Positions 7,183-59,912 of a stretch of 59,912 nt of DNA are shown here, one piece after another; position 1 is the first letter of the stretch; each line of letters begins with the position of its first letter. The stretch comes from Rickettsia typhi (GTDB lineage: Bacteria > Pseudomonadota > Alphaproteobacteria > Rickettsiales > UBA1997): assembly GCA_945875925.1 (NCBI GenBank), contig CAMCME010000003.1, positions 1 through 59,912 on the forward strand, given 5' to 3'. The notes under the pieces were generated by a model. The model did no database searches and had not been told where the DNA came from. It saw nothing but the letters and a program-made list of their open reading frames with translations. The translations under genes and the position numbers were made by a program.

Positions 7183-7394
7183 TTTTTGATTTTTTTTGAG
7201 TGTGAAAATATATAATCAAAGCAAGATTTGCTTGAAACAGCTTCGCTTTGAAATTCATTAAGAACTTGAATATAAATAATGTTGTACATTTTAGAGATAG
7301 TTTGAAGGAAGTGCAAGATTTTTATTTGCCTTCACCAAATCCGATTTGTAAGTTCAAAGGCGAATTCAATAAATTAATTTAAAATCCAAAATCT

Positions 7395-49953: not shown

Positions 49954-50388
49954 TTAAGCGAGAATAAGTTTTGTTAAATAAAAGCCGAAAAATAAGGCTA
50001 ATATTGAAAGTGTCACTGATGATAAAGCATAAAAAAGCGCTAGAGTGTTTTGGCCCGCAGTGAAGAGACGAAAGAAATCTAAAGAAAATGCTGAGAAGGT
50101 TGTAAAGCCACCTAAAAAACCAACAAATAATAAACTTCTAGTTTTGCTGCCCAGCACATCGAAATATTTAATCATCACATAATAAAGCACGCCGGCAATT
50201 AAAGAACCAAGAACATTCACACAAAATGTTCCCCAAGGAAAATTTGCGGGAAAATTTGCGGGAAAATTTGCGGGAAAATTTTTAGAGATATTTTCAACAC
50301 GAATTGATTTGGTGATGAATTCGAAAGTTAGGTATCTAGCGACTGAGCCAAGAGCGCCGCCAATGGCGATTAGGAGAATGTTGAGCAT
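49954..50388 (-). CDS. crcB: Fluoride channel CrcB/Fluc
   Basis: GGALGSVARY, FPWGTFCVN, GFLGGFTTFSAF. Confidence 0.95.
   Translation of the reverse strand: MLNILLIAIGGALGSVARYLTFEFITKSIRVENISKNFPANFPANFPANFPWGTFCVNVLGSLIAGVLYYVMIKYFDVLGSKTRSLLFVGFLGGFTTFSAFSLDFFRLFTAGQNTLALFYALSSVTLSILALFFGFYLTKLILA
50237..50281. repeat. In-frame 12-bp tandem repeat inside crcB
   Basis: GGAAAATTTGCG x3.75, encoding NFPA-NFPA-NFPA-NFP. Confidence 0.95.
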
Positions 50389-58305: not shown

Positions 58306-58358
58306 AAGGCTGTGAGTTTTTTAATAACTCTTCAAGTTATTAAAAAACTCACAGCCTT
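58306..58358. terminator. Perfect 24-bp inverted repeat between dsbB and the CRISPR array
   Basis: AAGGCTGTGAGTTTTTTAATAACT-CTTCA-AGTTATTAAAAAACTCACAGCCTT; an 11-bp hairpin precedes it at 58279-58304. Confidence 0.7.
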
Positions 58359-58365
58359 CCGACGC

Positions 58366-58401
58366 AATCCTAATTAATCCAAAATTCTTCTAGTTTAACT
58401 T
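58366..58401 (+). CRISPR. Highly decayed terminal CRISPR repeat
   Basis: 20/36 ungapped identity to the consensus, 31 nt before the first intact repeat. Confidence 0.6.
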
Positions 58402-58432
58402 CAACTCAAGAAACCGTGACTCGGATTTTCGC

Positions 58433-59325
58433 GTTCCAGCTTGACCGCAAATTCCCATCGCCTAGCTTTGATCCAGAATATCTTTATAAAGGAGAAGTGT
58501 TCCAGCTTGACCGCAAATTCCCATCGCCTAGCTTCTTTTCTACTTGCTTAATCTGTTCATAATGTTCCAGCTTGACCGCAAATTCCCATCGCCTAGCTTA
58601 CTTTTGAACAGGAAGAAAACGAATCACTAGTTCCAGCTTGACCGCAAATTCCCATCGCCTAGCTTAAACTAAGCCATAAGCCCCCAAGAACTCATGTTCC
58701 AGCTTGACCGCAAATTCCCATCGCCTAGCTTAAGCGTCAAATTTTAATCAAATTTCAATAAGTTCCAGCTTGACCGCAAATTCCCATCGCCTAGCTTTAA
58801 CCCAGCGTGATTATTTGTGCCGTCAGAGTTCCAGCTTGACCGCAAATTCCCATCGCCTAGCTTTTAAAGAAACCTTGAGTAAATGTATTGTTAGTTCCAG
58901 CTTGACCGCAAATTCCCATCGCCTAGCTTTTATGAAGACGACAGATTAACTTGGAACCCGTTCCAGCTTGACCGCAAATTCCCATCGCCTAGCTTAAGAT
59001 GTGGTGCATAATGATCTCAACAAAAGTTCCAGCTTGACCGCAAATTCCCATCGCCTAGCTTATAGTTGGTTGAGTGCCAAGTGCCACCGCAGTTCCAGCT
59101 TGACCGCAAATTCCCATCGCCTAGCTTCGAATCTCTCTTAAAAAAACACGGCGTGGTGTTCCAGCTTGACCGCAAATTCCCATCGCCTAGCTTAGTTCAT
59201 TGCGTGATAAGAAACTTCGAGTAGTTCCAGCTTGACCGCAAATTCCCATCGCCTAGCTTAAAGCAGGCGCACACCATGCACAATTCGTTGTTCCAGCTTG
59301 ACCGCAAATTCCCATCGCCTAGCTT
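58433..59325 (+). CRISPR. CRISPR array, type II-C-like: 14 identical 36-nt repeats, 13 unique spacers
   Basis: Repeat GTTCCAGCTTGACCGCAAATTCCCATCGCCTAGCTT; twelve 30-nt spacers and one 29-nt spacer; next to cas2 with no csn2 or cas4 between. Confidence 0.98.
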
Positions 59326-59332
59326 AGGAGCT

Positions 59333-59361
59333 CTGCGAGCCTTTTAAAACAAGGCTCGCAG
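59333..59361. terminator. Hairpin between the last repeat and cas2
   Basis: CTGCGAGCCTT-TTAAAAC-AAGGCTCGCAG. Confidence 0.7.
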
Positions 59362-59397
59362 CAAGTGTTTGATTTAGAAAAAATGACAAAAATCGGT

Positions 59398-59730
59398 CTA
59401 AAAAAGTTCATATTGTTCTGGATTTTTTGGATTTGATTTTTGTCTTCTACCATTAAAGGTAATAATATTTTCATATTGCTTATCTGTAAAAATGAGAATG
59501 TGAACCTTGCCACTCTCGGGCACAATCTTTTCAATTTTTTTGACATATTTTTCTGACGCTTCTTTGCTGGCACAAAATCTTTGATAGACAGAAAATTGCG
59601 CCATCTGAAATCCCATATCAAGCAAGGCATTACGAAACTCGGTCGCAGCTTTGCGCTCTTTTTTTATCATCACTGGTAAGTCAAATAAAACTTGAATCCA
59701 CAAAATTCTATAAGCTGAAAGTTGAGTCAT
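59398..59730 (-). CDS. cas2: CRISPR-associated endonuclease Cas2 (type II-like)
   Basis: LSAYRILW..LFDLPV, FRNALLDMGFQMAQFSVY, FTDKQY. Confidence 0.96.
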   Translation of the reverse strand: MTQLSAYRILWIQVLFDLPVMIKKERKAATEFRNALLDMGFQMAQFSVYQRFCASKEASEKYVKKIEKIVPESGKVHILIFTDKQYENIITFNGRRQKSNPKNPEQYELF

Positions 59731-59766
59731 TTAAATTTCTGATTTTAAGAAATCATTAATTCACTA

Positions 59767-59912
59767 TACCAAACTAAAAATCTATTGATCGCAGTAGCAA
59801 AGTATTTTTGAGGGAAAATTAAAACTTAAAAAAACTTGCTGTATCAATATACCGCTGGTTTTTTTAAGTTTTAATTTTTACCAAAAAGATGAAGCTAATG
59901 CGATCAATAGAT
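59767..59912. mobile_element. TA-type MITE upstream of cas2 (runs off the window)
   Basis: TA|TACCAAACTAAAAATCTATTGATCGCA at the left; the window ends in the complementary TGCGATCAATAGAT; core resembles 37099-37267. Confidence 0.8.

Follow-up and report, generated by a model that had tools for sequence, protein, structure and literature searches.

Probable inactivation of a type II-C CRISPR-Cas9 locus by a cassette within cas9 in an aquatic Rickettsiales genome, and occurrence of the same allele in other lineages

The CRISPR array and cas2

The window analyzed here is the 59,912-nucleotide contig CAMCME010000003.1 of assembly GCA_945875925.1, which constitutes the entire contig C3 of an 80-contig, 1.67-Mb, 97%-complete metagenome-assembled genome (MAG). 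Near its right edge lies a clustered regularly interspaced short palindromic repeats (CRISPR) array together with cas2, and the rest of the CRISPR-Cas9 locus to which they belong was found at the end of a second contig of the same genome, C7. The array (58433 to 59325, + strand) contains 14 exact copies of GTTCCAGCTTGACCGCAAATTCCCATCGCCTAGCTT (36 nt) starting at 58433, 58499, 58564 and so on to 59290, with a period of 65–66 nt, and 13 spacers, all distinct, that are 30 nt long in twelve cases and 29 nt in one. An earlier note, made from the letters of the window alone, had described the same 14 repeats and 13 spacers. Fourteen identical 36-mers at a fixed period cannot have arisen by chance, and some of the spacers match foreign DNA, as described below. 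The complementarity of the repeat to the anti-repeat of a trans-activating CRISPR RNA (tracrRNA), taken with the strand of the tracrRNA as fixed by its terminator, indicates that CRISPR RNA (crRNA) is read from the + strand of C3, toward cas2. This orientation also agrees with the T-rich tract, in the crRNA sense, that lies 3′ of the hairpin following the array in four species.

The cas2 gene (59398 to 59730, − strand) is intact and encodes 110 amino acids, with matches to Pfam CRISPR_Cas2 (2.3e-16) and TIGR01573 (3.1e-19) and 84% identity to the Cas2 of a relative, G015. No csn2 or cas4 open reading frame (ORF) was found between cas2 and the array or between cas1 and cas2, and the same was true of intact relatives; the absence of both genes beside cas2 had been noticed before, and no extra ORF is present. 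The hairpin after the last repeat, also seen earlier, occupies 59330 to 59366 (+ strand), before the cas2 stop codon, with a core stem of CTGCGAGCC/GGCTCGCAG and a fold energy of −19.6 kcal/mol. Its position is kept in three other species (UBA2645, G015 and G019), where the stem sequences differ and T-rich tracts again follow in the crRNA sense. It probably serves the pre-crRNA as an intrinsic terminator, which cas2 may share.

On the other side of the array, a long AT-rich hairpin with a 20-bp stem, a terminator-like site (58309 to 58355, no strand assigned), lies between the dsbB stop codon (58281) and the first repeat. It is the dsbB-side boundary of the inserted CRISPR module, which is lacking at the empty site in G031. 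The cas-distal flank between this hairpin and the array (58356 to 58432, + strand) lies 5′ of repeat 1 as judged from the crRNA orientation and is a possible candidate leader or promoter region, and no sigma-70 consensus was found on its + strand. The spacers were also compared with those of relatives' arrays in order to date the arrays, and none was held in common. Assembled Logan contigs collapse the array, and spacer heterogeneity between samples is unreadable from them.

A MITE in cas1 and the join between contigs C7 and C3

The window ends within a palindromic element that resembles a miniature inverted-repeat transposable element (MITE). Of its 165 bp, 149 bp are in the window (59764 to 59912, no strand assigned), and it has terminal inverted repeats of about 30 bp (CTATACCAAACTAAAAATCTATTGATCGCA) and a fold energy of −59 kcal/mol. 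The element is short and non-coding and is present in about 17 copies at 95–100% identity in the genome, 12 of them at contig ends, with further examples at C4:4322-4492 and in C9, C13, C18, C30 and C47. Neither the insertion in cas1 nor the C4 copy has an evident target-site duplication. In form the element, a non-coding, strongly folding palindrome with many copies, one of them inserted in the 3′ end of a gene, is like the Rickettsia palindromic elements and MITEs. This multicopy repeat broke the assembly between C3 and C7 and is the main source of contig breaks in this assembly.

Between cas2 and the element lie the final six codons of cas1 (ELMIS*, 59745 to 59763, − strand), severed by the element from the part of cas1 on C7. 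The sole Cas1 match in the genome is at the end of C7, which terminates in the same element, and the end of C7 overlaps the reverse complement of the end of C3 exactly over 131 nt. When the element was removed in silico, the joined flanks were colinear with three relatives across the 3′ end of cas1 and the start of cas2, which indicates that it inserted six codons ahead of the cas1 stop; it supplies cas1 with a new stop codon. In G031, a member of the same genus, the tonB-like gene that neighbors the module on C7 is followed within 2 nt by dsbB and then pgi, the neighbors on C3, with no CRISPR module between them, and this arrangement is the empty site of the module. The sequencing depths of C7 and C3 co-varied in four lake metagenome runs (10.7/11.6, ~7/7, 25/30 and 10.7/10.3). 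The join is thus supported by overlap, colinearity, synteny and depth, and mis-binning and chimerism are excluded.

Gene content of the locus

Read from C7 (+ strand) into C3 (− strand), the locus consists of a divergent tracrRNA gene, the start of cas9, two genes designated orfA and orfB, a 3′ tail of cas9, cas1, the MITE, cas2, the terminator hairpin and the array, and the whole module lies between the tonB-like gene and dsbB. The array is transcribed convergently to the cas genes, which is the usual layout of type II-C loci. The earlier note had placed cas1, cas9 and the tracrRNA beyond the right edge of the window; cas1, the start of cas9 and the tracrRNA gene were indeed found there on C7, but no functional cas9 was, and cas1 is frameshifted.

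The predicted tracrRNA gene lies upstream of cas9 on the opposite strand. The search for an anti-repeat that the note had proposed yielded AUGGGAAUUUGCAGUCAAGCUGGUAAC, which is predicted to form a duplex of about 25 bp with the repeat and is followed by a stem-loop and by a GC-rich hairpin with a U-run; the cofold energy was −74.5 kcal/mol in total. The anti-repeat is invariant in six genomes, and 7 of the 23 stem pairs of the two downstream hairpins are changed on both sides and still paired. Predicted pairing and covariation therefore both point to a tracrRNA with an anti-repeat complementary to the repeat. An Rfam scan of the region returned no family near its gathering score.

Only 115 N-terminal codons of cas9, in an ORF of 120 amino acids, and a separate 3′ tail of 68 nt remain. 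The stub matches positions 1-106 of the 1070 of TIGR01865 (E 1.9e-28) and shares 84% identity with the Cas9 N-termini of relatives. Homology to cas9 ends at L010 7321 (C7 43320/43321; C7 coordinates are those of L010 plus 35999), after codon 115, and up to this breakpoint the last 90 nt of the stub differ from G029's intact cas9 by one mismatch. The gene resumes with its final 68 nt at about L010 8858 (C7 ~44856/44857), at a TTAAA microhomology, so that about 2.9 kb of cas9 has been exchanged for a 1.5-kb cassette comprising orfA and orfB. A TIGR01865 search of the whole genome found the stub as the sole piece of cas9. A full-length cas9 with RuvC and HNH domains is thus absent from this genome and present in relatives, and the compact, uncharacterized Cas9 that had been suggested does not exist here.

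In terms of the cassette, orfA (197 amino acids) is an ORFan without a family match, and only four relatives of it were found among 5.8 billion proteins. The product of orfB (288 amino acids) belongs to DUF2971 (PF11185), with 23.6 bits against a Pfam gathering cut-off of 22, and most of its distant homologues also bear PF11185. The cas1 gene has a cas1_NMENI match (1.1e-76), and its product is about 89% identical to relatives' Cas1; one T has been lost from a T-run at codon 41. The adaptation genes therefore comprise a cas1 that is of the NMENI type yet split by a 1-nt frameshift, with its last codons lost to the MITE, and an intact cas2.

In two studies, four metagenome runs from lake water yielded Logan contigs in which the stub, the cassette with its two junctions and the frameshift recur with 0–1 differences. 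In one run, X3, the extra T is present in a minority contig along with five substitutions, and another contig runs on beyond base 7321 as intact G029-type cas9. The latter indicates that relatives with intact loci co-occur with this population.

An integrative island was considered and rejected: no tRNA or integrase adjoins the module, and the nearby tRNA-Cys is 2 kb away, past pgi and dsbB. At C7:39697-42066 (L010 3698-6067), between a TonB-dependent receptor gene and the tonB-like gene, there is a 789-amino-acid ORF with internal repeats and no Pfam match. The two flanking genes are adjacent in G031 and G066, so the ORF is a further lineage-specific insertion, next to the CRISPR module.

Related loci and host assignment

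Besides this genome, cas9 was found in 6 of 44 species genomes of the genus (5 of 36 searched directly, plus UBA2645). CRISPR-Cas is sporadic in the genus and not rare, contrary to the rarity that the earlier note gave for Rickettsiales. MAGs of Rickettsiales or mislabeled relatives yielded thirteen related loci, most of them titled "Rickettsiales bacterium" and from lakes, a few otherwise. The Rickettsiales host that the note had proposed holds; UBA2645 is of the same genus as this genome and has been assigned to Candidatus Gamibacteraceae by Schoen et al. (bioRxiv 10.1101/2021.08.31.458344). CRISPR is not discussed for this family in that preprint, its published version or Castelli et al. 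2024, and a literature search found no paper on the subject.

The loci of G015 (CAIZZE01), G019 (CAZENB01) and UBA2645 are intact, with a tracrRNA, cas9 (1093–1119 amino acids), cas1 (305 amino acids), cas2 (110 amino acids) and an array. The Cas9 proteins of relatives overall span 1093–1141 amino acids, the usual II-C size, and that of UBA2645 has RuvC_III, HNH and a helical lobe. Neither csn2 (II-A) nor cas4 (II-B) is present, and the neighbors of the intact loci encode HipA, DNA ligase, PriA and GuaB, the first three of these being beside the UBA2645 locus. The intact same-genus loci (UBA2645, G015, G019 and G029, the last being CANEUK01) resemble the present one closely: their repeats differ by 3–5 nt, the anti-repeat is identical, and the stub, Cas1 and Cas2 are 84%, about 89% and 84% identical. 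In contrast to this genome, they keep a full Cas9 and occupy other chromosomal sites, the module site varying by species in the genus among guaB, priA and tonB/dsbB.

The locus also shares with the type II-C systems of Neisseria meningitidis and Campylobacter jejuni the common ancestral cas9-cas1-cas2 set, 36-nt repeats, 30-nt spacers, a Cas1 of the NMENI family and a tracrRNA with anti-repeat, stem-loop and terminator. It differs from them in that cas9 is destroyed and cas1 is frameshifted and split by a MITE, which makes it a relic, and in its aquatic Rickettsiales host (Ca. Gamibacteraceae).

Further observations were made in the relatives. G015 has a second, far larger array of the same repeat family (C5:44270-47341, about 46 repeats) on a contig other than that of its cas operon. 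In two more distant MAG loci titled Rickettsiales bacterium, with Cas1 about 70% identical, cas9 is maybe damaged: it is split into 289 and 875 amino acids in L032 (306-3803), and only 674 amino acids are open in L034 (3845-5869). In this clade, cas9 may often be in decay.

The same cas9-null allele in other lineages

The arrangement stub-orfA-orfB-tail-cas1, with identical junctions, was found in two other lineages, represented by L100/L101 (JGI 3300032327, ENA ERZ21930612) and L103 (ENA ERZ28594560). The L100 locus has guaB as its neighbor, an arrangement shared with G015, and carries intact, G015-like cas1 and cas2 genes (94–96%); it has two repeats only, which differ from those of this genome, and the start codon of its stub is changed from ATG to ACG. 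In L103, cas1 homology stops after about 76 codons. A further contig, L102, has orfB, then one degenerate repeat and then priA, which is the UBA2645 context with all cas genes gone.

The synonymous divergence (dS) between this genome and L100 varies strongly along the locus: 0.045 for orfA and 0.11 for orfB, 0.42 for the cas9 stub, 0.30 for the 5′ part of cas1, 0.89 for its 3′ part, 1.01 for cas2 and 1.21 for guaB. The cassette values (0.03–0.11) are more than tenfold below those of housekeeping genes or cas2, and there is a sharp step inside cas1. The identical junctions indicate a single origin of the null allele, and a cassette tenfold younger than the old, lineage-specific flanks around it suggests that the allele was copied between the resident loci of different species by homologous recombination.

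At its left end the insertion opens with a hairpin motif in degenerate form (..GAGCTTGGTTACAAACCAAGTCTAGC..). Two related variants of this motif, A (ATGAACATGTGGACTGGGTTACAAACCCAGTCCAGC) and B (GAACTGAACGTGAGGACGGGGTTACAAACCCCGTCCTGC), have about 20 copies in the genome, often as B/A pairs about 50 nt apart; examples are at C31:300-1550, C2:45910-45979, C8:35115-35167, C34:6492-6545 and C69:4307-4358, and at L080 4703 and 5656. In G036 and in contig L102, the homologues of orfB have hairpins of both types on their flanks; orfB occurs without orfA, far from any CRISPR, downstream of argG in G036 and G034. A homologue of orfA in another locus adjoins a large serine recombinase. The orfA-orfB pair is thus mobile cargo; here it lacks its right hairpin end, as the right junction falls inside the end of orfB. 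As a separate observation, the B/A pairs are intergenic and enclose small gene cassettes, for which the region downstream of argG is a hot spot, and the hairpin family resembles an integron-like or repetitive extragenic palindromic (REP)-like cassette system.

Spacer targets

A search of eight spacers against IMG/VR yielded protospacers for three of them (spacers 4, 6 and 9). Spacer 6 matched three IMG/VR contigs at 29/30, with 3′ flanks ATGGACTT and ATGAACTT, and its target lies among tail-fiber-like genes. Spacers 4 and 9 both matched at 26/30; on the side proximal to the protospacer-adjacent motif (PAM) the identity is uninterrupted over 22 and 20 nt, and the 3′ flanks are CAAGACTA and CGAAATGA. 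Both match IMGVR_UViG_3300012667_000989 (L065, L069, L070), a phage genome of 55.5 kb that is complete, has direct terminal repeats, encodes RecT and a T4-type lysozyme and shows 28% GC in a sampled 3-kb stretch; it is a candidate phage of Gamibacteraceae. The targeted contigs are AT-rich freshwater phages encoding RecT, lysozyme and tail-fiber-like proteins. The expectation that the spacers record phages of the lineage was thus borne out for three spacers.

The flanks of the three protospacers have a common A at position 5 (N4A), and two of the three have ACT. N4A is tentatively proposed as the PAM; a PAM several bases away from the protospacer would be as in Nme-type systems. The spacers matched no cultured phage, and the suggested comparison with PLSDB plasmids gave no match either. 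The only plasmid candidate, from Sulfolobus, was a single 88% match with an E value of 0.2 and was discarded as noise. Spacers 3, 8, 10, 11, 12 and 13 had no exact 22-mers in IMG/VR, nor did spacers 10 and 13 in JGI metagenomes.

Self-targeting was considered as a cause of cas9 loss here and rejected, since no spacer matches the genome's own sequence over at least 20 nt. In UBA2645, with its intact cas9, spacer 11 of the array (L025) is a perfect match to its own chromosome (L083 1501-1530, 3′ flank TTTTTAAA). The target is homologous to a gene at C15:7652-7673 of the present genome, trpE/pabB-like by its N-terminal sequence, and the spacer matches this orthologue at 28/30. Another UBA2645 spacer matches, over 21 contiguous nt, a gene in contig C5 of the present genome that was read as nuoF-like. 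These matches could represent self-targeting or the targeting of relatives' DNA.

Interpretation

We consider it very probable that a type II-C CRISPR-Cas9 locus, by now inactivated and in decay, extends into the window with its array-proximal end. Its Cas9 stub, type II cas1 (NMENI), conserved divergent tracrRNA and lack of csn2 and cas4 assign it, by sequence, to type II-C by origin. The earlier assignment to type II-C is thus upheld in terms of descent, but not as a working system, and the possibility of a relic that the note itself had raised applies, as the stub and the 68-nt tail are the only remains of cas9. Judged from gene content, the locus is inactivated in three ways, by the reduction of cas9 to a stub and tail, by the cas1 frameshift and by the MITE in the 3′ end of cas1.

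The sequence shows that a hairpin-bounded mobile cassette entered cas9 after codon 115. The right end of the cassette and about 2.9 kb of cas9 are missing, and the right junction lies at the TTAAA microhomology inside the end of orfB. At least two other lineages carry this allele with identical junctions, one of them at a different chromosomal site. We propose that it was copied by homologous recombination into the resident II-C loci of different species. The cas1 and cas2 genes and the arrays may then have decayed independently, through the frameshift and MITE here, the shrinkage of the array in L100 and the loss of all cas genes in L102. Without Cas9 there would be no interference, and with a broken cas1 no acquisition of spacers, and the array and tracrRNA would be recent fossils that still record phages of the lineage.

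Several points weigh against this interpretation. No RNA-seq run was found to hold the locus, and the term "inactive" rests on gene content; 3% of the genome is unassembled, and no contig spans the repeat through which C7 and C3 are joined. All 14 repeats are identical and cas2 is intact, which suggests that the loss of cas9 was recent and that a residual role is possible. The flanks of the cassette have intermediate dS values (the stub and the 5′ part of cas1), and the latter is equally close to L100 and to intact-cas9 alleles (L024, 95–99%). These two results indicate a recombination history more complex than one clean transfer.

If a complete cas9 were located in the unassembled part of this unclosed genome or in an unbinned contig, it might use the array and tracrRNA in trans and, with cas2 intact, the system could still be functional. 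We regard this as highly unlikely, because the canonical position of cas9 is taken by the stub and cassette, the whole-genome TIGR01865 search found nothing else, cas1 is frameshifted in all four runs, and the single X3 contig end that runs on into intact cas9 matches G029, a different species. An artefact of assembly or binning, in which the cas9 truncation or the association of C7 with C3 is chimeric, might be suspected in a MAG whose contigs break in a multicopy repeat, and the note had itself named a mis-binned or chimeric join as an alternative. It is scarcely credible given that independent Logan contigs, obtained from four runs, read through both junctions and the frameshift, that the split cas1 rejoins colinearly, that the empty site of G031 unites the flanking genes, that depths co-vary and that identical junctions occur in three other assemblies.

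The presence of modules at different sites in different species (guaB, priA and tonB/dsbB) would also be consistent with transfer of the whole, already broken module to new sites, or with vertical descent, and no allelic replacement by homologous recombination would then be needed to explain the shared allele. However, movement in one piece would give uniform divergence, and dS within this one locus ranges from 0.03–0.11 in the cassette to 0.9–1.0 in the 3′ part of cas1 and cas2, with the step inside cas1; the repeats differ from those of L100, and the cas1 and cas2 of L100 are G015-like. This explanation is accordingly held to be improbable. Far less likely still is that orfA and orfB are a selected replacement for cas9, either as a new partner of Cas1-Cas2, the tracrRNA and the array or as a defense or addiction module whose benefit drives its spread. 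The allele is present in three lineages, orfB occurs in a further CRISPR remnant beside priA, cas1 and cas2 are still intact in L100, and orfB has a sub-threshold match to Tox-ART-HYD1 (1.2e-4). On the other hand, PADLOC gave no match for orfA or orfB, PHROGs gave only a family of unknown function for orfB, orfB occurs alone downstream of argG, dN/dS (the ratio of non-synonymous to synonymous divergence) is 0.4–0.7 with few changes, cas1 is broken here, the arrays of L100 and L102 are shrunken or gone, and the stub of L100 has lost its start codon.

Inactivation by mobile DNA, followed by recombination between resident loci, therefore remains the preferred account. A broader form of it, which we offer as speculation and think rather unlikely, is that cas9::orfA-orfB is a horizontally spreading "CRISPR knockout", a hairpin-bounded cassette between cas9 and cas1 homology arms that replaces cas9 in the resident II-C loci of Gamibacteraceae species by recombination. 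Such an allele could rise because loss of Cas9 is advantageous, for example through relief from self-targeting spacers like the one in UBA2645 with a perfect match to its own chromosome, or because the cassette confers a benefit or addiction.

The locus is similar to other cases of CRISPR-Cas decay and orphan arrays in which cas genes are lost to mobile DNA and deletion: a cassette lies in the effector gene, a deletion ends at microhomology, the adaptation genes decay and the array persists. Unlike a private lesion, the same null allele is shared here by species with synonymous saturation in their housekeeping genes, which suggests spread of the knockout across species. The system is ordinary in kind, and what sets it apart is its Rickettsiales host, its links to phages and the cross-species spread of one cas9-knockout allele. 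In this aquatic Rickettsiales family, whose defense systems and phages are essentially undescribed, type II-C CRISPR-Cas9 is an accessory system that is mobile and recurs. The spacers provide rare host-virus links for Rickettsiales, including a complete 55.5-kb phage matched by two of them. The locus is also a well-resolved natural case of loss of Cas9 immunity through insertion of a mobile cassette, deletion and stepwise decay, and a null allele shared across species bears on the patchiness of CRISPR-Cas in small-genome bacteria. Usable Cas9 orthologues, of ordinary size, should be looked for in the intact relatives and not in this genome.

Other observation in the window

Elsewhere in the window (49954 to 50388, − strand) there is a gene for a small membrane protein that appears CrcB/FluC-like by inspection. 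It has three tandem copies of NFPA (NFPANFPANFPANFP) in a loop, a short in-frame tandem duplication.

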